Part shown: piece by piece, positions 1-7,662 of the stretch | Numbering within the stretch: the first letter of the stretch is position 1 | How the letters are laid out: each line of letters begins with the position of its first letter | From: a virus | Lineage: Duplodnaviria > Heunggongvirae > Uroviricota > Caudoviricetes | Direction: 5' to 3' (one strand) | Virus record (IMG/VR): IMGVR_UViG_2690316224_000006 | Length of the DNA stretch: 7,662 nt | Program-made: the position numbers and the translations under genes | The notes under the pieces: generated by a model | What the model was told of the DNA's origin: nothing | Seen by the model: the letters and a program-made list of their open reading frames with translations, nothing else | The model's database searches: none

Positions 1-94
1 CCGTGGTTCGCTTGTGACCAGTAAGCATGAGCGAATGGCTGGCAGGTGCTACCAACACCCACCAGCCGCCCATTTTCACAGCAGGAAACCGCCA

Positions 95-298
95 TTACTG
101 GCAGCGTCTGAATTTATTCCCGTACCCGCCGTTATCCTTCGCCAGACCCGCCAGAACTAACTGAGTCAGTATTAACTGGCACCGGGCTTCGCTTACTCCG
201 GTAGTTCTCGTCATCATGCGTGGCGTTACCCACTTGTCAGCAGGTAAGAAATGAAGGACTGCGGCGGCGGTTTCTGTCATATCTTGCTGTTTTAGCAT
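95..298 (-). CDS. small hypothetical protein (67 aa from ATG at 298; the ORF extends to ATG at 322 for 75 aa); possible winged-helix fold
   Basis: Minus-strand ORF with TAA stop at 95-97. The internal ATG at 298 is preceded by AGAAGGGAAAAAGAC (SD-like, about 8 nt spacing), whereas the ATG at 322 has no convincing SD. The segment TTGVSEARCQLILTQLVLAGLAKD resembles a helix-turn-helix / winged-helix recognition region. No family is recognised with certainty. Confidence 0.35.
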   Translation of the reverse strand: MLKQQDMTETAAAVLHFLPADKWVTPRMMTRTTGVSEARCQLILTQLVLAGLAKDNGGYGNKFRRCQ

Positions 299-420
299 GT
301 CTTTTTCCCTTCTGGTTAACATGACATACCAATAACTCTTGTCTAAAAAGCCAGCAAGATAAAAAGTCAGTATTCACGGCCACCAGCGTGTTTACTGTAC
401 TGCACCAAGTTTACAGGTAC

Positions 421-446
421 AAAAAAACCGCTCAGTGGCGGGTTGC
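421..446 (-). terminator. putative rho-independent terminator downstream of the lipoprotein gene (second copy of the tR'-like motif)
   Basis: Plus strand reads AAAAAAACCGCTCAGTGGCGGGTTGC. On the minus strand this is a short GC stem (CCGC/GCGG, 6-nt loop) followed directly by TTTTTTT. It matches the 1097-1124 terminator at about 22 of 24 positions. The stem is only 4 bp, so it is weaker than copy A. Confidence 0.3.
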
Positions 447-521
447 TATCACAGCTATATATTTACTTATTATGCCGTTACTAACATTTATCTTCGACAT
501 ATAATCGAAAACAAGGTTTGC

Positions 522-947
522 TTAAAACTCTGCTTTCATTTTATCCGGGAATTTTTTATTTGCAGCATAATAACTACCAAGTACATAAGCGTTCATTTGC
601 TGCTCTACATCAACCCGACATGCCGCACTAGAACAAGCTCCACTGATAAGCCCAAAAGAACTCCCTTTAGCAGAGAGATCAGCTTTGATTTCCTCTACAG
701 TGTTTTTCCCCATAGCAACTACACACCCTGTCACAATATATCTAGCCTTCACATCATCCATGCTAAGGATAGTAGTTTTCGCAATTTTGCTGTATCCATC
801 ATTTTTATAAACATCCATGGCAAACGCACGGCAATCTGTATAATACGGACTTGCTTTAACTTGCGAATACTCAGGTAATTTCATACCTGCACAACCAACC
901 AAACAAAAACCTATCGCTGCTATTAATACCTTTTTCATTACAGTCAT
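522..947 (-). CDS. predicted lipoprotein of unknown function, moron-like (141 aa; alternative start ATG at 938 gives MKKVLIAAIGFCLVGC...)
   Basis: The N-terminus has a positively charged n-region (MKK), a hydrophobic h-region and a lipobox LVGC, with Ala rather than Asp at +2 after the lipidated Cys. The mature part contains four further Cys. The gene lies in a clearly AT-rich island (about 450-1080) between two terminator-like hairpins. TAA stop at 522-524. The SD is weak for both candidate starts. Confidence 0.6.
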   Translation of the reverse strand: MTVMKKVLIAAIGFCLVGCAGMKLPEYSQVKASPYYTDCRAFAMDVYKNDGYSKIAKTTILSMDDVKARYIVTGCVVAMGKNTVEEIKADLSAKGSSFGLISGACSSAACRVDVEQQMNAYVLGSYYAANKKFPDKMKAEF

Positions 948-1096
948 AACCTAGAAGCATCATTGAAACTAATTTATTAAATAATCATCGAGTTTCTGGA
1001 ATACAGACGTTAACCATCTCTCCAAAATCTAAAAGATAATAAGAAAAAATGTTTAACGCACCAATCCATTTCATAGTTTCATGAGACATCAGGCAC

Positions 1097-1124
1097 AAAA
1101 AAACCCGCTCAGCGGCGGGTTTTT
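1097..1124 (-). terminator. rho-independent (bidirectional) terminator, tR'-like, downstream of Q
   Basis: Plus strand reads AAAAAAA-CCCGC-TCAGCG-GCGGG-TTTTT. This is a 5-bp GC stem flanked by an A7 tract and a T5 tract, so on the minus strand the hairpin is followed by seven U. It sits about 105 nt downstream of the Q stop codon (1228). Confidence 0.6.
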
Positions 1125-1167
1125 GACATTTACCAACGGTAGACATACAAGGCCCATCGTTGAGAAA

Positions 1168-1196
1168 ATCTTATCCATATTTTTTGAAAAATGCAA
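1168..1196 (-). promoter_or_regulatory. candidate sigma70 late promoter (pR'-like) between Q and the terminator
   Basis: On the minus strand: TTGCAT (complement of 1191-1196), a 17-nt spacer, then TAAGAT (complement of 1168-1173). The match is 3/6 and 4/6 to the -35 and -10 consensus. Its position immediately after Q and before a terminator mirrors the lambda Q-pR'-tR' arrangement. Hand-scanned only, so this is weak. Confidence 0.25.
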
Positions 1197-1227
1197 GTAT
1201 CACGTCGACATCTTCGGCGAAAATTAT

Positions 1228-1980
1228 CTATCTTGTCACTTTTCTCAATTGCGATTCAGCATACGCTTCTTCCTGCCAGCACTTTGTAACCAGTTTATTA
1301 ATAACGTCTGCATATCCTTTGTACCACTGATAATCCGTCAGGTCCGGTACCAGTTTCTGGACATGATGCCGCGCCAGTGTGGTTGGTAAACGGCTAAACC
1401 GGTTGCCATTGCAACGCCCACAAATCTTATAAACAGGCACACCATGAAGCCGGGTTCTTTTTTCATCCAGGACAATACCTTTACCCTTACACCCTCTGCA
1501 CGCTGTGCTGACTTCTCCCTTACCATGGCAATGCTGACATAGTTCCTTCACCCACTCTTCCTTGATAACAGATTCCCCGCTTCTGGAGTGTTTCACCACT
1601 TCGCGCAATACATTATGAAATCCAGTACCAGCACAATGCTCACAGCGAGCCTTACTTGCCGCAGACCTGGAATAATCAGCAAAGGCAAAATTCACAAGGT
1701 AAGGGATGATCTGTAACCGGGTTTCTTCACTCAATTTGTTCAATGTCGGGTTATCCAGTGCCATCGCGTAATTGAGCAGACCTTCAATCGCAAATTGAGG
1801 ATCCTGAACACCAACTTTTGCCAGGAATAAGGCAAACCCAAGCGGTGCTTTCGACTGCACCATCCCCTGCGCAGCCATCACATCCGTAATCGTTAAACCA
1901 CCTGAGCCTGTCACCGGTGCGTCATCGCTCAATTTTGGAGATTTTGGGGAGTAATATTTTGGTAAGGCTTCAAGGTTCAT
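1228..1980 (-). CDS. late-gene antitermination protein Q (250 aa, lambdoid Q family with a Cys-rich zinc-binding region)
   Basis: ATG at 1980 is preceded by GGAGAACGAGC (SD). The ORF track's longer form begins at an upstream GTG at 2022. The N-terminus MNLEALPKYYSPKSPKLSDDAPVTGSGG... is recognised from memory as a prophage Q antiterminator. It contains four CxxCxGxx-type cysteine pairs (CEHCAGTG, CQHCHGKG, CRGCKGKG, CGRCNGNR). Synteny supports the call: rusA ... DUF968, Q, then a terminator. Confidence 0.8.
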   Translation of the reverse strand: MNLEALPKYYSPKSPKLSDDAPVTGSGGLTITDVMAAQGMVQSKAPLGFALFLAKVGVQDPQFAIEGLLNYAMALDNPTLNKLSEETRLQIIPYLVNFAFADYSRSAASKARCEHCAGTGFHNVLREVVKHSRSGESVIKEEWVKELCQHCHGKGEVSTACRGCKGKGIVLDEKRTRLHGVPVYKICGRCNGNRFSRLPTTLARHHVQKLVPDLTDYQWYKGYADVINKLVTKCWQEEAYAESQLRKVTR

Positions 1981-1993
1981 GCTCGTTCTCCAC

Positions 1994-2989
1994 TTACGCC
2001 AGTACGCCAATTGCCAGCGCACGATCGATAAAACGAAATATCAGCTCCAGCTGGGAGCCATACTTCTCTTCAAATGCCACGGTATCCGCATGCAGCTCGT
2101 CGTGATGCTTTCTGCACAAAGGCAACACAAAGAGGTCATGCGCTTTTGTACCCATTCCCCTCTGACCGTGACCTATCAGGTGGTGGGGATCATCAGCAGG
2201 CTTTCCACAACATGCACACGGCTGTGTCTTAACCCAGCGCGTGTACTTTTCATTAACCCAGCGGCGGCGTTTTGGGCGTAACATAAAAGACTCCGGCGAC
2301 TCCGGATCCACTTTCAGCGCCAGCACCTTTTTTGCCTTATCCTGGATGATGCTGGTGGCAGGAACCGAAGGCACAAGGTCACTTTCCCGGGTGACAGACG
2401 GCACAACAGGCTTTGGTAATCTCAGTGCCTTACGGGCTGCACTTTCCGGTAAGGCATCCGCCAGGTCATTACGAATCAGCCACCAGCACAGTTCCGGCAT
2501 TGTCACAACGTGACTATCATCAAAACCGAGATCCCGACGCACAACAGACAACACCCAGCGGGCACAGTTATCCGTTGCCATTGATTCCAGCCGTTCCGTG
2601 AACTGATCGCGCAGCTGGTTATCGCAGTGCCAGCACAGACGGATTGCGCCCGGAGCGTGTCGCATTGTGGTCATGTTCTCGCTGTGCCAGTCGGAATGAG
2701 GCCACTGGCAGCCTTTTTCACGACGTAACCAGCTTTCAAGACATTCCACGCCACCAGCACGACGGATCACTGCCTCATTGCGGAACACGGCCCGAACGGC
2801 AGGATCATCCGCCAGCGGTTGTGATGCCGCCGGAACGGCACCACTGGCGAAAGATGAATAACGTTCCGGCTCAGGCTCCAGCAGAACACGCCCCTGCATA
2901 AACAGGGGCATCAGCTCTGAACCTGGCCTGAACAATACGATCCCCATACGCGGGGCAATTTCAGGGGTCAGTAGTGCTCTCACGGTCAC
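1994..2989 (-). CDS. DUF968-family phage protein with a C-terminal HNH-like Cys/His motif (start uncertain; GTG at 2989 or an internal ATG)
   Basis: A 331-aa ORF directly upstream of Q, as in Qin-type prophages where a DUF968 gene precedes Q. The C-terminus CACCGKPADDPHHLIGHGQRGMGTKAHDLFVLPLCRKHHDELH resembles an HNH / zinc-finger nuclease motif. The annotated start codon is GTG, adjacent to the KilA-N stop, and no strong SD is seen for any candidate start. Confidence 0.65.
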   Translation of the reverse strand: MTVRALLTPEIAPRMGIVLFRPGSELMPLFMQGRVLLEPEPERYSSFASGAVPAASQPLADDPAVRAVFRNEAVIRRAGGVECLESWLRREKGCQWPHSDWHSENMTTMRHAPGAIRLCWHCDNQLRDQFTERLESMATDNCARWVLSVVRRDLGFDDSHVVTMPELCWWLIRNDLADALPESAARKALRLPKPVVPSVTRESDLVPSVPATSIIQDKAKKVLALKVDPESPESFMLRPKRRRWVNEKYTRWVKTQPCACCGKPADDPHHLIGHGQRGMGTKAHDLFVLPLCRKHHDELHADTVAFEEKYGSQLELIFRFIDRALAIGVLA

Positions 2990-2990
2990 C

Positions 2991-3800
2991 TCAATGAACG
3001 GTATCGAGCAGCTTTAACAGCTCAGGGAATCGGGATTCGAAGAAATGCGGCTGCGTCTCGCGCGGATTTGCAGGACTGGTGATGTTCTTGCCGAACATGC
3101 AGCCTTTCGCCGTCAGCGACCAGAATTTTTTGATGTTGTTAATCGCGGTACGGCTGTATCGTTCGCGTTGTTCAACGATCCCCAGCTTCACCATCTGGTG
3201 ATATGCCTGATTAGCCGTCAGGCGGATACCATACTGCTTCAGCAGTGCACTCAGCGACAGCGTGGGGCGACTTGAGCCATCAGGCGCGTCAGCAGGAGCA
3301 TCAATGGCATAGCGCGGTGCCAGATTCGGTAAGCCAACAGCCTCCTGAAGCTTCTGACAGGCTCCAAGCACTGATGAGTTAGACAGATTTAATTCCCGGC
3401 GCATAAAGTCCAGCAGGATCACGCCAGCCTGCATCTTGTCAGCAGCCTGTCCGGATAATTTTTCCGGTGCGCTGGTTACCATGTCGAAAGTACGGATCAC
3501 CTTCAGATGGAATGACGGGCTGATCCACATTGCATAGGCATACACCAGTTCTTTGCAGACATACGTCCCCTGGTTATTTCCGCCATTAATGACGCTAACT
3601 GGTTGATTTTGTTCCAGAGGCGGAATTCCACCCTCGGTGAAAAGTTGTTCAATCAATTCACAGGTTTGCTTATTGGAGAGCCAGTATTTCGGGCGGTTTT
3701 TTTGTTCTCCCCCGGCTGCCCTGTGCAGATCGTTCAGGCTGTAACGCCCATAAGCATCACGACGAACTTCAATACCATCAATGACCATCAGATTATTCAT
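2991..3800 (-). CDS. KilA-N domain protein (antirepressor-like, two-domain; 269 aa)
   Basis: ATG at 3800 is preceded by AGGAGAAACGAAGT (strong SD). The longer ORF-track form to 3848 is unlikely. The N-terminus MNNLMVIDGIEVRRDAYGRYSLNDLHRAAGG...PKYWL fits the KilA-N DNA-binding domain pattern. The C-terminal roughly 150 aa are unassigned. Confidence 0.75.
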   Translation of the reverse strand: MNNLMVIDGIEVRRDAYGRYSLNDLHRAAGGEQKNRPKYWLSNKQTCELIEQLFTEGGIPPLEQNQPVSVINGGNNQGTYVCKELVYAYAMWISPSFHLKVIRTFDMVTSAPEKLSGQAADKMQAGVILLDFMRRELNLSNSSVLGACQKLQEAVGLPNLAPRYAIDAPADAPDGSSRPTLSLSALLKQYGIRLTANQAYHQMVKLGIVEQRERYSRTAINNIKKFWSLTAKGCMFGKNITSPANPRETQPHFFESRFPELLKLLDTVH

Positions 3801-3819
3801 ACTTCGTTTCTCCTCTTGA

Positions 3820-4209
3820 TCAGGCGGCTGCACCCGCCGGTTTCTCATACTTACTGATAGTGATCTCGACCTTCCCTTTCTGGATAACCGGTCCCCACTC
3901 CACCAGCATTCTTTTCACCTGGCTGTCGTCTTCCCACACCCCCGCGTGGGTCAGGGCGTCAAACAGCGCCTTGTTATAGTTGTCCAGATCGCGGATCCGG
4001 TTATCCGGAGGAAACAACACGATCTCCACTGAAGCAGGTGCCGACGTTGGTTTTGGCAGACGACGTAACTGCTCAACTATTGCTGCGCACGCCGCGCTCT
4101 GGAATTTGCGCCCCGCCGCGCTTATCAGGCTTTTACCAGCAAACGCCCCTTTATTAGGGTGTCGCCAGTACGTATTCACGCTGGGCGGGAAAGGTAGGAT
4201 CAGTTTCAT
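3820..4209 (-). CDS. rusA: RusA-family Holliday junction resolvase (crossover junction endodeoxyribonuclease)
   Basis: The 129-aa protein MKLILPFPPSVNTYWRH...RDLDNYNKALFDALTHAGVWEDDSQV matches the RusA family in length and in conserved acidic motifs (DLDN, D-x-L). The ATG at 4209 overlaps the upstream stop (ATGA). Confidence 0.9.
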   Translation of the reverse strand: MKLILPFPPSVNTYWRHPNKGAFAGKSLISAAGRKFQSAACAAIVEQLRRLPKPTSAPASVEIVLFPPDNRIRDLDNYNKALFDALTHAGVWEDDSQVKRMLVEWGPVIQKGKVEITISKYEKPAGAAA

Positions 4210-4532
4210 ACTTTCAGGCCTCTCTCATGTAACCAGTGGGTGGCACGCAGCCTGGCGTTTTCCTCACCGGCAAGCAGTGAGCGGATAATCCCGACCGCCT
4301 CGCTGTCATCGTCCTTCACCGCGGTATGAAGCGTTATCCCCCGGGCCACGCCACGCTTTATCGTGATGACGCCTTTTTTCTCCAGTGCGCGAAGATGCTC
4401 CACCGCTGCATTCACTGAACGGTATCCCAGCATGGTTGCCACCTCCTGATTGGTTGGCGGGAAGCCACGTTCTTTCTGGTAAGAAATCAGCATATCCAGC
4501 ACCTGCTGCTGGCATTGAGTTAACGTCGTCAT
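4206..4532 (-). CDS. LexA N-terminal DNA-binding-domain protein (108 aa) lacking the S24 peptidase / dimerisation domain
   Basis: MTTLTQCQQQVLDMLISYQKERGFPPTNQEVATMLGYRSVNAAVEHLRALEKKGVITIKRGVARGITL aligns nearly residue-for-residue in pattern with the LexA winged-helix DNA-binding domain (PPT...E.A..LG.RS.NAA.EHL.AL..KGVI.I..G..RGI.L). The protein ends about 40 aa later, with no Ser/Lys protease domain. Start and stop both form ATGA overlaps with neighbouring genes. Confidence 0.8.
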   Translation of the reverse strand: MTTLTQCQQQVLDMLISYQKERGFPPTNQEVATMLGYRSVNAAVEHLRALEKKGVITIKRGVARGITLHTAVKDDDSEAVGIIRSLLAGEENARLRATHWLHERGLKV

Positions 4533-5182
4533 GCCGCCATCTCCCTGACCAGTTTTTCCGCCTGCTGGCGAACCTGCACCAGAAAGGCTTCACCACATGC
4601 CTCAAGTTCATCGCGCCCGATGTAGCTGATTGCCGGTCCCTTCCAGGTCTTGTCGAAAACAGCAATAGCACCAGCGAAGAAAGCGCCTGTCGGCACCTGC
4701 TTCTCATCCTTCGGGATAAACCAGGCAGGCAGTTCAAAACCAATACGCCCGCGAATAAAAGCAATATGGTCCGCATCTTCCGGCCACCACACTTCGCTGG
4801 TGGCAGCTTTGATCAGGAAAACATAGCGCCCGCCCTTATCACGCATGGCACTGGCATGTTTCATGATGTAACGCATGCCGGTGATGTATTGCCCCTCATG
4901 CTGACTGGCGCGGCTGTATGGGGGATTACCAAAGGCAGCACCTTTAAGCTCCGCAAGACGTTCTGACCAGTCATGCGCCAGCGCGTTATCTTCCGCCGTG
5001 TAATACGCGGCACATTTGGCGTTATCACCGTCAGTAAACAGATCCAGAACAAACGGGCCAAACAGGGTGTTAATTCCCCAGAAAATGTTGTCCGGCGTGC
5101 GCCACTGATCGCCCACTTCCTTCAGTTCATGGGCTGGTTTGTTCCGCAGTTCCACCAGCGCCTGGCAATATTTATTACTCAT
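4529..5182 (-). CDS. phage-type DNA N6-adenine methyltransferase (Dam family, orphan; 217 aa)
   Basis: The catalytic motif NPPY (FGNPPYS) is encoded at 4916-4927. An upstream W-R-T-P motif and the overall size match the phage Dam family. The ATG at 5182 overlaps the upstream TAA (TAATG). The ORF-track form to 5215 starts further upstream and is less likely. Confidence 0.85.
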   Translation of the reverse strand: MSNKYCQALVELRNKPAHELKEVGDQWRTPDNIFWGINTLFGPFVLDLFTDGDNAKCAAYYTAEDNALAHDWSERLAELKGAAFGNPPYSRASQHEGQYITGMRYIMKHASAMRDKGGRYVFLIKAATSEVWWPEDADHIAFIRGRIGFELPAWFIPKDEKQVPTGAFFAGAIAVFDKTWKGPAISYIGRDELEACGEAFLVQVRQQAEKLVREMAA

Positions 5183-5670
5183 TAAGCCCCCACGTAATTC
5201 CCTGACAGATACCACTCTTCACCCGATGCAGCGCGCTTGCTGCTTTTCCGTAAGCACCGCTCACGACGCGCCAGAAAATTGTTTCGTTCTGGCTGGGAGT
5301 GGCTTTCACGGAATGCCGCCATCCACACGGTTGCAGCACGACGGTATAAGCCCCTGGACTCCAGTTCTTCAGCCTGGCGGATCAGGCACAAAATCACCCG
5401 TGGATCGTTAGTGCCGACATAGAAATTGCGCACAGGTCTGGTTTCTCGAACTGGTTGTGGTTCCGGTTCCTGCGCTCTCTCAGTCAGGCGCGGGAAATGT
5501 CTGCGTGTATCTCCTTCACAACGGTGAGCCACACGCCCACTCTGACGTAACTTGCTTGCTGACTGCAGAACGCGCTGCCGTGAGTAACCTGCAAAAGCAT
5601 CCGCAATGTCTCCGGAAGTACACCCCGGATGGGCTTCAATGAATTTCTGAACTTCATTCAAAAGACTCAT
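5182..5670 (-). CDS. putative PerC-family-like transcriptional regulator with an N-terminal winged-helix-like extension (162 aa)
   Basis: ATG at 5670 is preceded by AGGGGGTGATC (SD-like) and lies 2 nt after the upstream TGA. The C-terminal segment LESRGLYRRAATVWMAAF...RRERCLRK resembles the PerC/Pch conserved core as remembered. The N-terminal 60 aa look like a small HTH, joined by a Pro/Glu-rich linker. The family call is from memory only. Confidence 0.45.
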   Translation of the reverse strand: MSLLNEVQKFIEAHPGCTSGDIADAFAGYSRQRVLQSASKLRQSGRVAHRCEGDTRRHFPRLTERAQEPEPQPVRETRPVRNFYVGTNDPRVILCLIRQAEELESRGLYRRAATVWMAAFRESHSQPERNNFLARRERCLRKSSKRAASGEEWYLSGNYVGA

Positions 5671-5672
5671 GA

Positions 5673-6089
5673 TCACCCCCTGAATCCTGCCGGGATCTGG
5701 CTGTAGTCCACGTTGTCGTAACTGGCTTTGAAGTACGGGTCCTCACGTCTGGCTGCAGATACCGCAGGAACTTCCCAGGATTCTTCGAAATGACGATCCG
5801 GACCAAAGAACGTGACAGCCTGTTTCACAAATTGTGTGCCGCTGTTACCCATCGCAGATACCCAGCCCGCGTAGCGTTTCACACCTTCCAGCATGGTTTC
5901 GGGGTTTACCCCCTCATTCAAACGGGCTTTCCAGGCTTTGAAGGCTGCAGATTTTGAATTGCCACCAGCACGTTTGGGATATACCAGCCATGCCTGCTCA
6001 AACTCCGGAGAGTATTCCGGTCGGTTTGAACGAACTCGCACGGACTCATCAACTGATGCACCAACAGCTATTGGTTCATTGACTGGTTC
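5673..6089 (-). CDS. replication initiation protein, C-terminal part (same gene as 6098-6696; broken by an assembly gap and duplicated flank)
   Basis: The open frame runs from the gap to TGA at 5673-5675. Its first 38 aa (RVRSNRPEYSPEFEQAWLVYPKRAGG...NPET) repeat the last residues of the upstream fragment, so the two fragments join in frame if one 197-bp copy plus the Ns is removed, giving about 272 aa in total. Confidence 0.6.
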   Translation of the reverse strand, partial: EPVNEPIAVGASVDESVRVRSNRPEYSPEFEQAWLVYPKRAGGNSKSAAFKAWKARLNEGVNPETMLEGVKRYAGWVSAMGNSGTQFVKQAVTFFGPDRHFEESWEVPAVSAARREDPYFKASYDNVDYSQIPAGFRG

Positions 6090-6294
6090 NNNNNNNNATG
6101 GTTTCGGGGTTTACCCCCTCATTCAAACGGGCTTTCCAGGCTTTGAAGGCTGCAGATTTTGAATTACCACCAGCACGTTTGGGATATGCCAGCCATGCCT
6201 GCTCAAACTCCGGAGAGTATTCCGGCCGGTTTGAACGAACTCGCACGGACTCATCAACTGATGCACCAACAGCTATTGGTTCATTGACTGGTTC
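5893..6294. repeat. 197-bp direct duplication (5893-6089 and 6098-6294, 3 mismatches) flanking an 8-N gap; probable scaffold-join artifact
   Basis: Directly read: the two copies are identical except for three substitutions (g/a, a/g, t/c). The N run at 6090-6097 separates them. Both copies encode the same peptide, with one V/A difference. Confidence 0.9.
6090..6097. other. assembly gap (NNNNNNNN)
   Basis: Eight ambiguous bases inside a coding region. Confidence 0.95.
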
Positions 6295-6696
6295 TTTGAC
6301 TGGTTCAAAAGAGTGACTGGTTCTGGGTGAATCTCCTGCACTACCCCCTGGTGCAACTCCTGCACTACCTGGTGAATTTGCTGCACCAGATAGTGAATTA
6401 TTTGCACTACCCCCTAGTGAATCTCCTGCACCATCCAGATGAAGGAGATAGATATTACTTGAGTTACCTTTTTCACCTTTCCGGGTGACTTTTTTTACCA
6501 GCCCGGACTCACAAAGGGCCGCAATATGATTCATCACAGAACGTTTGCTAATCTCGCACTGGTCAGCAATATGCTGGTAGCTGGGCCAGCACTCACCCTG
6601 ATCGCTGGCATTATCAGCCAGCTTGATCAGAACCAGTTTTCGCAATGGATTACCCACTCGAATTTTCATCGCTTTAACCATCAGCTCCATACTCAT
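6098..6696 (-). CDS. replication initiation protein, N-terminal part (HTH domain plus Gly/Ser/Ala-rich linker), O-like initiator
   Basis: ATG at 6696 is preceded by GGAGGTGCAGC (SD) and overlaps the upstream stop (ATGA). The N-terminus LRKLVLIKLADNASDQGECWPSYQHIADQCEISKRSVMNHIAALCESGLVKK is a typical phage replication-protein HTH of the HTH_36 type. The ORF-track stop at 6076 is an artifact of reading through the Ns. Confidence 0.65.
6285..6431. repeat. iteron-like short direct repeats inside the replication-initiator linker region (candidate origin)
   Basis: TGACTGGTTC occurs at 6285-6294, 6297-6306 and 6314-6323, and again at 6080-6089 in the duplicated copy. GTGAATCTCCTGCAC occurs at 6327-6341 and 6417-6431. 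The motif TGCACTACC(CCCT) recurs at about 6337, 6361 and 6403. A moderately AT-rich stretch follows at about 6440-6480. Confidence 0.35.
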
Positions 6697-6929
6697 GCTG
6701 CACCTCCGAGATGCTTCATGTTTTTTCCGGAGCGAAAGGCTATAAGCGGCATACTGACGCGGTAATTACGGCCAAGCGGTTCACAAATCACCTTCTGGCA
6801 TTCACGGTCAACCAGGCTAACACGTAGAACATGCCCTGCAGGTGTGGTGTACCACTGCCCAACTGTAGGAATTGATATTTTTTTACGCTGAAGTAAACGG
6901 TGAATATTGAGGATCAACGGATTAAGCAT
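6693..6929 (-). CDS. small phage protein, DUF4222-like (78 aa)
   Basis: ATG at 6929 is preceded by GGAGGGCATCGTC (SD) and overlaps the upstream gene by 8 nt. Its stop overlaps the replication gene start (ATGA). The pattern G..Y....G..L.V...(9)...V...(5)...G..Y..S.P...F resembles small prophage DUF4222 proteins as remembered. Confidence 0.5.
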   Translation of the reverse strand: MLNPLILNIHRLLQRKKISIPTVGQWYTTPAGHVLRVSLVDRECQKVICEPLGRNYRVSMPLIAFRSGKNMKHLGGAA

Positions 6930-7566
6930 GACGATGCCCTCCGCTGATATTCAGGAGACGGTGAATATGAAGATTAGCCTTATCCGCCAAACGAATACGT
7001 TCAGCCTGCAAGTTAAGAAGGGTTTCTACCAGAAGTTGATGCGCCTGCGGATCTGAAAGAGTTACCTTGCGCAGAGCACGTAGTGCTGTTGTTACATAAC
7101 TGAGTTTATGTAAGTCTTCATCATTCAGACGAGTGAGGGCTGGGACAGTAGCCATGATGGCAGCCTCCTTGATCGGTGAAATACTTCCACCACCGGAAAC
7201 GCCAATTTCGCTGGTGGTGAACTGAACGGGGTTGGCGTAACCGGTGATCAAGGAAACCGGCGCATCTTTCGATGCCCCCGCCCAGCCCACCATAACTTTG
7301 ATGTGAGCAAATGCGGACGATAAAAAAGACGCTGGCGCGTCATATATCGCCTTGATCAATTCCAGGACGCCAATCCCGGCACCCGCTTTATAAGGTGCCT
7401 GAACAGTGTAACGTCCCGGAATGGCAGAATCAATGTGCTGGTGGTCCTTCACACTCAACAAAATCACGCCTGAATTTCCACAAAGGACTAAAGCACTCAT
7501 GCGGGTAGTCTTTGCGAAGATAGATAACGCGCTGTGTTTCTGGCTCCCAACGAATAACATGAACAT
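6922..7566 (-). CDS. hypothetical phage early protein (214 aa from ATG at 7566; the ORF extends to GTG at 7623); possible Rossmann-like fold
   Basis: A long minus-strand ORF in the same operon. The ATG at 7566 is preceded by GAAGAGGACTTT (SD, about 5 nt spacing), while the GTG at 7623 has no SD. Gly-rich loops (KAGAGIGV, GVSGGGSIS) and a PVSLITGYA segment give a weak resemblance to DprA/SLOG-type nucleotide-binding folds. No confident family assignment. Confidence 0.5.
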   Translation of the reverse strand: MFMLFVGSQKHSALSIFAKTTRMSALVLCGNSGVILLSVKDHQHIDSAIPGRYTVQAPYKAGAGIGVLELIKAIYDAPASFLSSAFAHIKVMVGWAGASKDAPVSLITGYANPVQFTTSEIGVSGGGSISPIKEAAIMATVPALTRLNDEDLHKLSYVTTALRALRKVTLSDPQAHQLLVETLLNLQAERIRLADKANLHIHRLLNISGGHRHA

Positions 7567-7662
7567 AAAGTCCTCTTCCGTCACTAAACCAGCGGTTAAG
7601 TTCCTGCACAACTCGCCCCCCACAGTCAGGTAAAGTTCTCTGTGGTTACTTACAGCCAGGTG

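Follow-up and report, generated by a model that had tools for sequence, protein, structure and literature searches.

Dense Chi sites in the early-right operon of a lambdoid phage lineage probably reliant on host RecBCD

The window analysed here, the whole 7,662-nucleotide stretch of IMG/VR record IMGVR_UViG_2690316224_000006, covers the early-right operon, from ori to Q, of a lambdoid E. coli prophage belonging to the mEp460/SfV/Stx2c type. It is densely marked by the Chi octamer, and very probably belongs to a lambdoid lineage that carries neither a recombination module nor a RecBCD inhibitor and relies on the RecBCD enzyme of the host. The Chi richness is real but already known, being a published signature of recombinase-less, inhibitor-less lambda-like phages. 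Enrichment, octamer specificity, orientation with right-end clustering, and absence of Rec and anti-RecBCD genes were computed here, the last two in relatives; the action of RecBCD on these Chi sites and the resulting growth benefit are drawn from the literature on phage LLS.

Results

Gene content of the window

Identity of the window is 99% with E. coli prophages and 97–98% with Stx2c phages, mEp460 and SfV; 89% of it is covered by SfV at 97.2% identity. Of 5426 complete E. coli genomes, 3930 carry matching prophages, and in 302 the match extends over 80% or more of the window length; the E. coli-group host of the original prediction can be specified as E. coli/Shigella. The genes listed next are all on the minus strand. 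Upstream early-right genes (6693..7609) encode a hypothetical protein (6693-6929), an Ash family protein (6922-7467) and a DUF4222 protein (7430-7609). They are followed by the replication initiator gene (5673..6696; HTH_36, lambda-O-like role), which hosts four to five iterons of ~21–24 bp (6327..6431), the presumed ori. It is the sole replication gene present, no helicase or loader being found after it. The remaining early-right, nin-like operon (1228..5676) bears Chi sites and encodes PerC (5182-5676), Dam (4529-5182), a LexA-DNA-binding-domain protein (4206-4532), the Holliday-junction resolvase RusA (3820-4209), located within the Chi array, a KilA-N protein (2991-3800), a DUF968/HNH protein (1994-2983) and the Q antiterminator (1228-1980).

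The initiator gene is split by a run of 8 N, NNNNNNNN (6090..6097), a scaffold gap between two overlapping 197-nt copies (5893-6089 and 6098-6294) that are 98% identical. The copies arose where contig ends that overlap were joined in the scaffold, and do not reflect a true duplication. Removal of 5893-6097 reopens the frame and restores an intact Rep gene of 819 bp, which matches in length the Rep annotation of the closest E. coli prophage. Because of the N gap, it is even conceivable that the window joins sequence from two related prophages.

Chi sites

An exact search for GCTGGTGG identified 12 matches, 4 on the plus and 8 on the minus strand, at precisely the coordinates listed earlier from a hand scan. 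Sites 5962 and 6167 represent a single site present in two overlapping contig-end copies, as anticipated in part by the original prediction, which regarded the copies as a duplication. The unique sites are therefore 11 (7 minus, 4 plus) in 7457 bp, or ~1.5 per kb locally. The minus strand of the window corresponds to the top strand of the phage map, and the right cos end would lie ~3 kb past window position 1.

Sites in active orientation (minus strand) reside both between and within genes. Two are intergenic, in ~43% G+C DNA: 59..66, downstream of the small ORF 95-298, and 380..387, flanked by ORFs 522-947 and 95-298. The latter follows, by ~35 nt, a hairpin that resembles a terminator and has a T run. 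The DUF968/HNH gene hosts 2480..2487 (gene position 497, TGC TGG TGG, Cys-Trp-Trp) and 2751..2758 (gene position 226, GCT GGT GGC, Ala-Gly-Gly), the RusA gene 3900..3907 (gene position 303), and the Dam methyltransferase gene 5152..5159, close to its 5' end. Site 5962..5969 is in the O-like replication gene, ~150 bp right of the ori iterons in the phage map; 6167..6174 (minus strand) is its copy made by the scaffold join, and is not independent. The four sites in inactive orientation (plus strand) are all antisense to genes: 2351..2358 in DUF968/HNH (codons GCC ACC AGC, gene position 626), 4796..4803 in Dam, 7210..7217 in the Ash-family gene, and 7437..7444 where the Ash and DUF4222 genes overlap.

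Enrichment over null models and host

Chi ranks first among the octamers in the de-duplicated window, the runner-up (6 copies) overlapping Chi itself. The claim that about 11 unique sites are far above chance and host values holds against all the controls used. Dinucleotide shuffles (n=200) gave a mean of 0.37 and a maximum of 3 sites. Markov simulations of order 1 to 5 on the de-duplicated window gave means of 0.34–3.4, and 11 was never reached in 500 runs each. Synonymous-codon shuffles, in which all protein sequences and the usage of codons stay unchanged, had a mean total of 4.2–4.5 (maximum 8), inclusive of 3 sites immune to shuffling, and reached 11 in 0 of 2000 cases. The octamers one mismatch away from Chi, 24 in all, are present in 0.38 copies on average, and none exceeds 2. 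The density of E. coli K-12 (1008 sites per 4.64 Mb) predicts 1.6 sites (P(≥11) ~1e-6); at 0.22 per kb in the chromosome, the window exceeds the host ~7-fold. Sites in inactive orientation are also above every null (4 observed vs a shuffle mean of 1.1, maximum 3), an enrichment not predicted by RecBCD entry at cos.

Orientation and clustering in relatives

The original prediction held that Chi sites are biased to the coding strand. Within the window by itself, the excess on the minus strand (7:4) falls short of significance (binomial P = 0.55). Counts on the top and bottom strands are 16/4 in mEp460, 17/5 in SfV, 16/3 in Stx2c and 14/5 in the closest prophage, and the bias is significant in the first three, which are complete relatives. 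It tracks the genome strand relative to cos, favouring the strand that ends 3' at the right cos end, and not the coding strand. The early-left genes of mEp460 are transcribed leftward, and the Chi sites in them remain on the top strand, antisense to the genes (23104, 26021, 28699), and ~44 top-strand vs 2 bottom-strand sites were counted in the leftward-transcribed region of IMG/VR loci, a redundant set.

Top-strand sites are clustered as well. The right-most 25% of the genome, which is no higher in G+C, holds 10 of 16 in mEp460 (P = 0.0016) and 11 of 17 in SfV (P = 0.0006), and no Chi on either strand occurs across 22 kb of mEp460 structural genes. In 80 IMG/VR loci, top-strand Chi sites number ~1 per kb at -2 to +8 kb around Rep vs 0.13 per kb in the early-left operon. 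Chi is the top octamer genome-wide in both mEp460 and SfV. Twelve sites in active orientation lie between cos and the cII-like gene of the closest prophage. The mEp460 terminase is of the lambda GpA type, and no lambda-like or LLS-like cosN was found near terS in mEp460 or the closest prophage; it is therefore the order of the genes and the family of the terminase that point to an open right end. Bottom-strand sites are found in the ori-to-cos region in mEp460 (all 4), SfV (5 of 5), Stx2c (3 of 3), Stx2a_12E129 (5 of 5), LLS (2 of 3) and F1055 (2 of 2). A Klebsiella phage (12/0) and 716R3 (19/0) carry top-strand sites only. As controls, the LLS count obtained here (20/3) equals the published figure, and no Chi was found in lambda (right 21.5 kb only) or P22 (whole genome).

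Absence of recombination and anti-RecBCD genes

Pfam searches agree that no Gam-like gene resides in the window. A gam homologue had been suggested as something to look for elsewhere in the prophage, and none was detected in relatives: Exo, Bet, Gam, Abc, Erf and RecET are encoded in none of 90 related loci and genomes. Queries for tblastn were lambda Exo/Bet/Gam/NinB/NinG/P, P22 Abc1/Abc2/Erf/Arf/gp12 and Rac RecE/RecT. Rec and anti-RecBCD matches were found neither in 84 loci nor in 6 further relatives; the positive controls lambda and P22 were recovered. Genomes negative for these genes include the closest E. coli prophage, mEp460, SfV and a Stx2c phage (the last three as complete genomes), together with 80 IMG/VR loci sharing the replication gene. 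Early-left genes, as assessed by Pfam and PHROG, encode only YfdP, YfdQ (DUF2303), YfbR-like, DUF551, Ead and a DnaQ-like exonuclease, and LLS features the same early-left set (PMC12315714). The absence of the Rec module applies to close relatives only, and lambdoid phages are mosaic.

Conservation of individual sites

All 4 Chi sites in the DUF968 and RusA genes are kept in Salmonella phage homologues of 76–81% identity, in which only 11–27% of octamer windows survive. This conservation may be counted as purifying selection. Site 2351, in inactive orientation, is kept at 81% identity, and site 3900 in RusA at 76–78%. Site 2480 is kept as far as LLS gene 47 (52% identity); it is thus largely fixed by the Cys-Trp-Trp protein motif, and needs no selection for Chi. 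Site 2751 is kept at 81% identity, has one mismatch in both 66% homologues and two in LLS gene 47 (52%), and depends on synonymous codon choice.

Discussion

Phages of this kind have been described. In the survey of Bobay et al. 2013 (PMC3784561, supplementary file 6) SfV (NC_003444) is classified as Rec- Inh-, with 22 Chi sites vs 2.95 expected (P<0.0001); the total found here is the same (17+5 = 22), and orientation of Chi was left unanalysed in that study (PMC3784561). With its Mu-like contractile tail and a terminase of another family, SfV has only its early region in common with the lineage of the window. In Rec- phages Chi sites are concentrated between gene O/ori and cos (Bobay et al. 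2013, PMC3784561). A class with no Rec module and high Chi has been described by Zheng et al. 2025 (PMC12315714), who found at least 8 Chi sites in active orientation in 62 of 68 lambdoids devoid of the Rec module, and reported that phage LLS benefits from RecBCD, growing more poorly without RecB or RecC. The lineage of the window resembles LLS in its lambdoid layout, in Chi as top octamer, in the early-left yfdP and yfdQ (mEp460 has also yfbR-like and DnaQ-like exonuclease genes) with no Exo, Bet or Gam, in having one O-like gene for replication and neither helicase nor loader, in the prevalence of active over inactive sites (16–17 vs 3–5 per genome) with clustering in the right quarter, and in the GpA-type terminase. 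The two differ in that similarity is only 52–73% over few shared genes, the nin-region RusA is missing in LLS (PMC12315714), and sites in inactive orientation are somewhat more numerous in the window lineage, all in the ori-to-Q region.

A correctly oriented Chi improves growth of lambda red gam phages (Lam 1974, Faulds 1979, Kobayashi 1982, as cited in PMC12315714). There also RecBCD coming from the right cos end meets Chi from the 3' side, but these are laboratory mutants with one or few sites, whereas the window lineage is natural and carries ~20 per genome. Phage P1, with 50 Chi sites in 94.8 kb, needs RecA and RecBCD (as cited in PMC12315714). Unlike the phages analysed here it is not lambdoid, is packaged by the headful mode from pac, and circularises by recombining its terminal redundancy. 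Two further parallels are the polarity of Chi in the E. coli chromosome and the protection by Chi that is reported for multimers of rolling-circle plasmids (Dabert, Ehrlich & Gruss 1992; Kuzminov 1994). The octamer, the enzyme and the orientation-dependent protection of double-strand ends are the same in those systems, but chromosomal Chi sites are far sparser.

Favoured codons (CTG, GTG and GGT) are part of Chi, and coding DNA adapted to the host might gather copies of it for that reason. Higher-order Markov models and synonymous shuffles do lift the expectation from 0.37 to about 3–4.5, and one site encodes an invariant Cys-Trp-Trp motif. No type of shuffle reached 11, however; one-mismatch neighbours are not enriched (0.38 vs 11), two sites are intergenic in AT-rich DNA, lambda and P22 are devoid of Chi over the regions searched, lambda and LLS have nearly the same codon usage (Zheng et al., PMC12315714), and the density is ~7 times that of the host chromosome. 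A by-product of composition and codon usage, with no selection for Chi itself, is thus highly improbable. An old defective prophage may also drift to the Chi content and polarity of the host under selection for chromosomal repair. The window derives from a bacterial assembly, the dominant Chi strand of the closest prophage is that of the single flanking chromosomal Chi, and a concern of this type was raised by Zheng et al. about the prophage-heavy data set of Bobay et al. (PMC12315714). Drift toward 0.22 per kb cannot produce 1.5 per kb, the same sites are found in the isolated plaque-forming mEp460 and SfV and in Stx2c phage records, and the apparent disruption of Rep is an assembly artefact, all of which makes such amelioration very improbable.

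The octamer might instead be the recognition site of a phage-encoded factor, coinciding with Chi. The operon encodes candidates (LexA-like, PerC and KilA-N proteins, Dam or HNH enzymes), and enrichment in both orientations is expected if the word is bound by a protein indifferent to polarity. Against this reading, which is extremely improbable, the same octamer and polarity are enriched in relatives devoid of some candidate genes, such as LLS (no RusA, no PerC), polarity is retained in the Klebsiella phage and in 716R3, Pseudomonas phages of the class accumulate the Pseudomonas Chi-like word instead, and RecB and RecC are needed for full growth of LLS (PMC12315714). A role of the ori-near array mainly in the repair of broken forks or rolling-circle tails arising from ori in either direction, rather than of cos ends, would give the inactive sites a function, but is on the whole unlikely. 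Bobay et al. saw Chi of Rec- phages near ori, and proposed fork processing (PMC3784561); bottom-strand sites are almost confined to the ori-to-cos region, one is kept at 81% identity, and RusA is encoded inside the array. Yet no clean polarity switch occurs at ori, top and bottom sites being mixed on both sides, and two related Chi-rich phages lack any bottom-strand site. Many bottom-strand sites are inherited by descent, so independent cases are few.

Reliance on host RecBCD through dense, oriented Chi sites thus stands as the preferred reading. A double-strand end would be exposed by the terminase cut at cos, or as a rolling-circle tail or broken fork. RecBCD would enter, travel leftward and degrade DNA until, within the first few kb, a correctly oriented Chi is met (7 unique ones in the window), which would attenuate the nuclease and make RecBCD load RecA. 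The end would thereby be preserved and recombined, yielding the concatemers needed for packaging, and selection for this end-preserving role would hold Chi density well above that of the host. That Chi sites may serve to cope with RecBCD at linear or concatemeric ends, as originally proposed, is the published explanation for the class (PMC3784561; PMC12315714). By analogy with LLS, the role of Chi likely goes beyond passive protection, as recombination through RecA loading may replace the missing phage module.

Chi sites in the window

Chi, the octamer GCTGGTGG, marks the window 12 times. An exact search located it on the plus strand at 2351, 4796, 7210 and 7437, and on the minus strand at 59, 380, 2480, 2751, 3900, 5152, 5962 and 6167, the same positions that the original prediction had read by hand. 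The sites at 5962 and 6167, listed there as duplicated copies, sit in two 197-nt segments (5893–6089 and 6098–6294), 98% identical, and the residues between the segments (6090–6097) are 8 Ns. They are indeed the same site met twice, but the repetition stems from the assembly. A true tandem duplication of 205 bp within the replication gene was rejected, as the copies flank an 8-N scaffold gap; residues 5893–6294 are two overlapping contig ends in a scaffold join, not duplicated DNA. With 5893–6097 deleted, the frame is open and holds a replication gene of 819 bp, as long as its annotated counterpart in the closest E. coli prophage. The two 197-nt copies disagree at a few positions, and the two sides of the window may therefore represent a pair of related prophages merged by collapse or scaffolding. 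De-duplication leaves 7457 bp with 11 Chi, of which the minus strand has 7 and the plus strand 4, in line with the 11 or so unique sites anticipated.

Chi is the commonest octamer of the de-duplicated window (11 copies), the next words being found 5–6 times and mostly overlapping Chi. Dinucleotide-preserving shuffles (n=200) gave a mean of 0.37 sites and a maximum of 3. Markov models of orders 1–5 trained on the window gave means of 0.34–3.4, and 11 copies were reached in 0 of 500 runs at each order. Synonymous-codon shuffles within or across genes, which preserve all proteins and codon usage, yielded mean totals of 4.2–4.5 and a maximum of 8 (11 reached in 0/2000), and these totals contain 3 untouchable sites, 2 intergenic and 1 in a gene overlap. 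The 24 words differing from Chi by a single mismatch average 0.38 copies, with a maximum of 2; since such words stay rare, the excess is tied to the exact octamer and not to composition. An artefact of composition or codon usage is thus ruled out by the dinucleotide, Markov, synonymous-codon and codon-order shuffles, as by the one-mismatch neighbours. The intergenic sites at 59 and 380 reside in DNA with a local G+C content of about 43%, and no repeat was evident around them on inspection of the displayed sequence by eye. The density in E. coli K-12, 1008 Chi per 4.64 Mb (quoted in PMC12315714), corresponds to 1.6 sites in a stretch of this length, and the probability of at least 11 is about 1e-6. 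The view that Chi is far denser here than in the host chromosome or by chance is borne out by these controls.

Identity and organization of the window

Prophages matching the window were found in 3930 of 5426 complete E. coli genomes, in 302 over at least 80% of its length, and the best matches are 99% identical; the E. coli-group host suggested by the motif is hence confirmed. Among phages, identity is 98.3% to Stx2c-converting phages, 97.8% to mEp460 and 97.2% to SfV, and Ayreon also matches. Relatives infect E. coli, Shigella, Salmonella and Klebsiella.

All genes lie on the minus strand. According to the phage map, their order is DUF4222, Ash, a small ORF, the replication initiator (HTH_36), PerC, Dam methylase, a LexA-DNA-binding-domain protein, RusA, KilA-N, DUF968/HNH, the antiterminator Q and two small ORFs, and the window represents the ori-to-Q part of the early-right operon. 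mEp460 and the closest prophage have a cII-like gene, cro and cI on one side of the region, lysis and terminase genes on the other; the lysis genes and a terminase of the lambda GpA type lie beyond window position 1. The minus strand of the window therefore corresponds to the phage top strand, with its 3' end at the right cos, about 3 kb off; by homology, the window is located some 3–10.5 kb from the terminase-proximal end. A lone O-like gene makes up the replication module, with neither helicase nor loader. This poorly understood 'O only' type has been recorded in 34 of 314 lambdoid phages (Zheng et al. 2025, PMC12315714). Inside the gene, 4–5 degenerate iterons at 6327–6431, with a period of about 21–24 bp and a core like CTCCTGCACTACC, presumably mark ori, and the nearest Chi is found about 150 bp rightward on the phage map.

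Other features of the region deserve mention. The 108-aa protein encoded at 4206–4532, between Dam and RusA, consists of a LexA DNA-binding domain alone, devoid of the S24 peptidase domain, and is a possible SOS-box binder. On the minus strand, at about 421–441, visual inspection revealed a GC-rich hairpin with a T run behind it (cccgccactgagcggttttttt), which is absent from the terminator-scan list. The hairpin comes about 80 nt after a 141-aa ORF (522–947), whose transcript it may terminate, and some 35 nt before the intergenic Chi at 380. Cargo is carried at the ends of the closest prophage (L001): a defence-like pair made by a SLATT-domain protein and a reverse transcriptase (777–2676) resides beside dinI and int, and a Panacea-domain protein (33014–33586) beside a truncated tRNA-dihydrouridine synthase (dusA-like) fragment. 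The fragment suggests integration at that end.

Distribution and polarity of Chi in related genomes

Chi sites were counted on the two strands of complete relatives, drawn with the terminase at the left. Top and bottom strands carry 16 and 4 sites in mEp460, 17 and 5 in SfV, 16 and 3 in the Stx2c phage, 14 and 5 in the closest E. coli prophage; the 13.5 kb of chromosome adjoining the latter in the same record contain 1 Chi. As counting controls, LLS, an experimentally studied phage, gave the published 20/3, and both the right 21.5 kb of lambda and the whole P22 genome gave 0. In the whole mEp460 and SfV genomes Chi ranks first among octamers. No site is found in the 22 kb of mEp460 head and tail genes, and the right-most 25% of the genome, where G+C is no higher, hosts 10/16 top-strand Chi in mEp460 (P = 0.0016) and 11/17 in SfV (P = 0.0006). 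In 80 IMG/VR loci with the same replication gene, top-strand Chi occur at about 1/kb between 2 kb to the left and 8 kb to the right of the gene, at 0.13/kb in the early-left operon, and are missing from the immunity region.

The 7:4 strand bias of the window alone lacks significance (P = 0.55); complete relatives show a significant one (P = 0.004–0.017). The original prediction had linked it to the coding strand. In the window coding strand and phage top strand coincide. In the early-left operon, which is transcribed leftward, Chi keep to the top strand and are antisense to the genes, as at 23104 (dinI), 26021 (exonuclease gene) and 28699 (gp32) in mEp460; the early-left region of the IMG/VR loci, which are redundant, features about 44 top-strand vs 2 bottom-strand Chi. 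Polarity is thus relative to the genome end and not to transcription, and coding-strand bias was rejected as the primary variable. Among distant relatives polarity is absolute in Klebsiella phage 1 LV-2017 (12/0) and in Escherichia phage vB_EcoS-716R3 (19/0), the record of which includes some host flank.

Near terS, neither mEp460 nor the closest prophage has a 12-mer resembling the cosN of lambda or LLS, with up to 2 mismatches allowed, and cos is consequently placed from gene order only. Judged by gene order and the GpA-type terminase, the open end would be the right one, so that the 7 minus-strand Chi of the window would be active, and the 4 plus-strand Chi inactive, for entry from cos. Outside the window, a perfect palindrome, CCACCAGCTGGTGG, which makes two overlapping Chi in opposite orientations, is found at 19239–19252 of L001 (41705–41718 of mEp460), within the gene for a DNA methyltransferase that separates Q from the lysis genes.

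Search for recombination and anti-RecBCD genes

No Gam-like protein is encoded in the window, as originally noted. Relatives were searched by tblastn with lambda Exo, Bet, Gam, NinB, NinG and P, P22 Abc1, Abc2, Erf, Arf and gp12, and Rac RecE and RecT as queries; 51 IMG/VR loci extended at least 8 kb to the left of the replication gene. The queries found no match in 84 related loci or genomes, nor any Rec or anti-RecBCD match in six more distant relatives, and gam homologues are accordingly missing from all 84 + 6 at the level of tblastn, which recovered the positive controls (lambda, P22). For three relatives, namely the closest prophage, mEp460 and the Stx2c phage, the early-left genes were also scanned with Pfam and PHROG, and no Rec or anti-RecBCD gene was detected. 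The early-left genes in these three relatives encode YfdP, YfdQ/DUF2303, a YfbR-like phosphatase, DUF551, Ead/Ea22 and excisionase, as well as a DnaQ-like exonuclease adjoining xis. LLS has the same early-left gene set, which Zheng et al. do not call a Rec module (PMC12315714). Judging from its relatives, the lineage appears to be free of a Rec module (SSB, exonuclease, annealing protein) and of anti-RecBCD proteins of the families searched. Diverged homologues had been fetched as a Rec+ contrast (Salmonella phages 118970_sal3 and F1055, Stx2a_12E129, vB_EcoS-716R3, Klebsiella phage 1 LV-2017 and LLS); all are Rec-less and Chi-rich, and none is Rec+.

Conservation of single sites

The DUF968 and RusA genes of Salmonella phages 118970_sal3 and F1055 are 76–81% identical to those of the window. 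Only 11–27% of octamer windows are perfectly conserved in these genes, and 4/4 Chi are intact. Were they ordinary octamers, the chance of this would be about 1e-3, a value obtained by multiplying survival rates, the two Salmonella phages not being independent. One DUF968 site, TGC-TGG-TGG, encodes a Cys-Trp-Trp motif kept as far as LLS gene 47, and is accounted for by protein sequence. Another, GCT-GGT-GG (Ala-Gly-Gly), hinges on synonymous choice, and shows one mismatch in both homologues at 66% identity, two in LLS gene 47 (52%). Sites also turn over: the Chi of the replication gene reads GCAGGTGG in 118970_sal3, and a KilA-N Chi is present in the latter where the window reads GCCGGGGG. Three of the 4 plus-strand sites of the window share the frame NCC-ACC-AGC (x-Thr-Ser).

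Sites in the presumed inactive orientation

Plus-strand Chi are themselves in excess. Against the 4 observed, codon-preserving shuffles gave a mean of 1.1 and a maximum of 3, and 4 were reached in 0/2000. Neither of two earlier studies sees more than background in inactive-orientation sites (Bobay 2013, PMC3784561; Zheng 2025, PMC12315714). Selection of both orientations from ori to cos may be envisaged, the sites forming a two-way trap that rescues ends arising near the origin in either direction, in addition to cos ends; broken theta forks and rolling-circle tails of either polarity would be served. The location of 21 of the 22 bottom-strand Chi of six Chi-rich relatives in the ori-to-cos quarter fits such a trap, many of these sites being shared by descent, as does one inactive-orientation Chi that is preserved in 81%-identical homologues, in which octamers survive at a rate of about 21%. 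Speaking against it, the two related phages with 19/0 and 12/0 sites have no bottom-strand Chi. A clean, replichore-like polarity switch at ori was looked for and not seen. On balance we hold the two-way trap, taken as a whole, to be improbable. Selection of the active orientation toward cos very likely accounts for the array; entry at cos does not predict the excess of wrong-way Chi.

Proposed role of the Chi array

The route by which top-strand Chi would act can be drawn from the literature (PMC3784561, PMC12315714) and classical Chi genetics. Terminase cutting at cos would free the right end of the upstream genome unit, and rolling-circle tails and broken forks would expose further ends. 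RecBCD would enter, travel leftward and encounter top-strand Chi from the 3' side; at Chi, degradation of the 3'-ended strand would stop and RecA would be loaded. The end could then invade a sister molecule, so that DNA is preserved and concatemers are built, and junctions formed in this way could be resolved by RusA, a product of the operon that carries the array. If RecBCD recognises an individual Chi in 20–40% of encounters, 7 sites would give a 79–97% chance of recognition, and 12 sites, the number between cos and the cII-like gene in the closest prophage, 93–99.8%. The original reading of dense Chi as protection of phage DNA from RecBCD is supported, with the refinements introduced here.

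Strong Chi enrichment has been reported in lambdoid phages lacking both recombinase and RecBCD inhibitor (Bobay, Touchon and Rocha 2013, PMC3784561), in which Chi are concentrated between gene O/ori and cos. SfV (NC_003444) is listed in the supplementary table of that study with no recombinase, no inhibitor, and 22 Chi vs 2.95 expected (P<0.0001); our count (17+5) is the same, and SfV covers 89% of the window at 97% identity. A 'no Rec module, high Chi' class was later defined by Zheng, Casjens, Davidson, Amundsen and Smith (2025, PMC12315714): among 314 lambdoid phages of enterobacteria, a Rec module is missing from 68, and 62 of these carry 8 or more active and no more than 6 inactive Chi. 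Right-end clustering and orientation of Chi were demonstrated in the class, and enhancement of growth by host RecBCD was shown for LLS and three sibling isolates, LLS growing less well without RecB or RecC and normally without RecD (PMC12315714).

The lineage shares genomic traits of this class. The window genes, and the flanks in the closest prophage and mEp460, have a lambdoid layout. Chi counts of complete relatives fall within the limits set for active and inactive sites, the window alone having 7 unique sites in the presumed active and 4 in the presumed inactive orientation; active Chi lie toward the right, cos-proximal end in mEp460, SfV and the 80 loci. LLS also relies on a single O-like replication gene, with no helicase or loader. 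The sites are exact copies of the enteric octamer, in a host whose RecBCD recognises it. The observation is correct, and it concerns a phenomenon already published and a lineage already tabulated: the phenomenon itself, the ori–cos location, the link to missing Rec/Gam functions and the count for the near-identical SfV were all made known in 2013 and 2025.

The Chi array probably marks reliance of the prophage on host RecBCD-RecA recombination, rather than on functions of the Red/Gam type, for replication and packaging. In annotation, such an array predicts that a Rec module is absent, and may further be used to predict host-range or defence interactions that sense RecBCD inhibition. Since Stx2c-converting phages carry the same module, their induction and propagation may depend on RecBCD.
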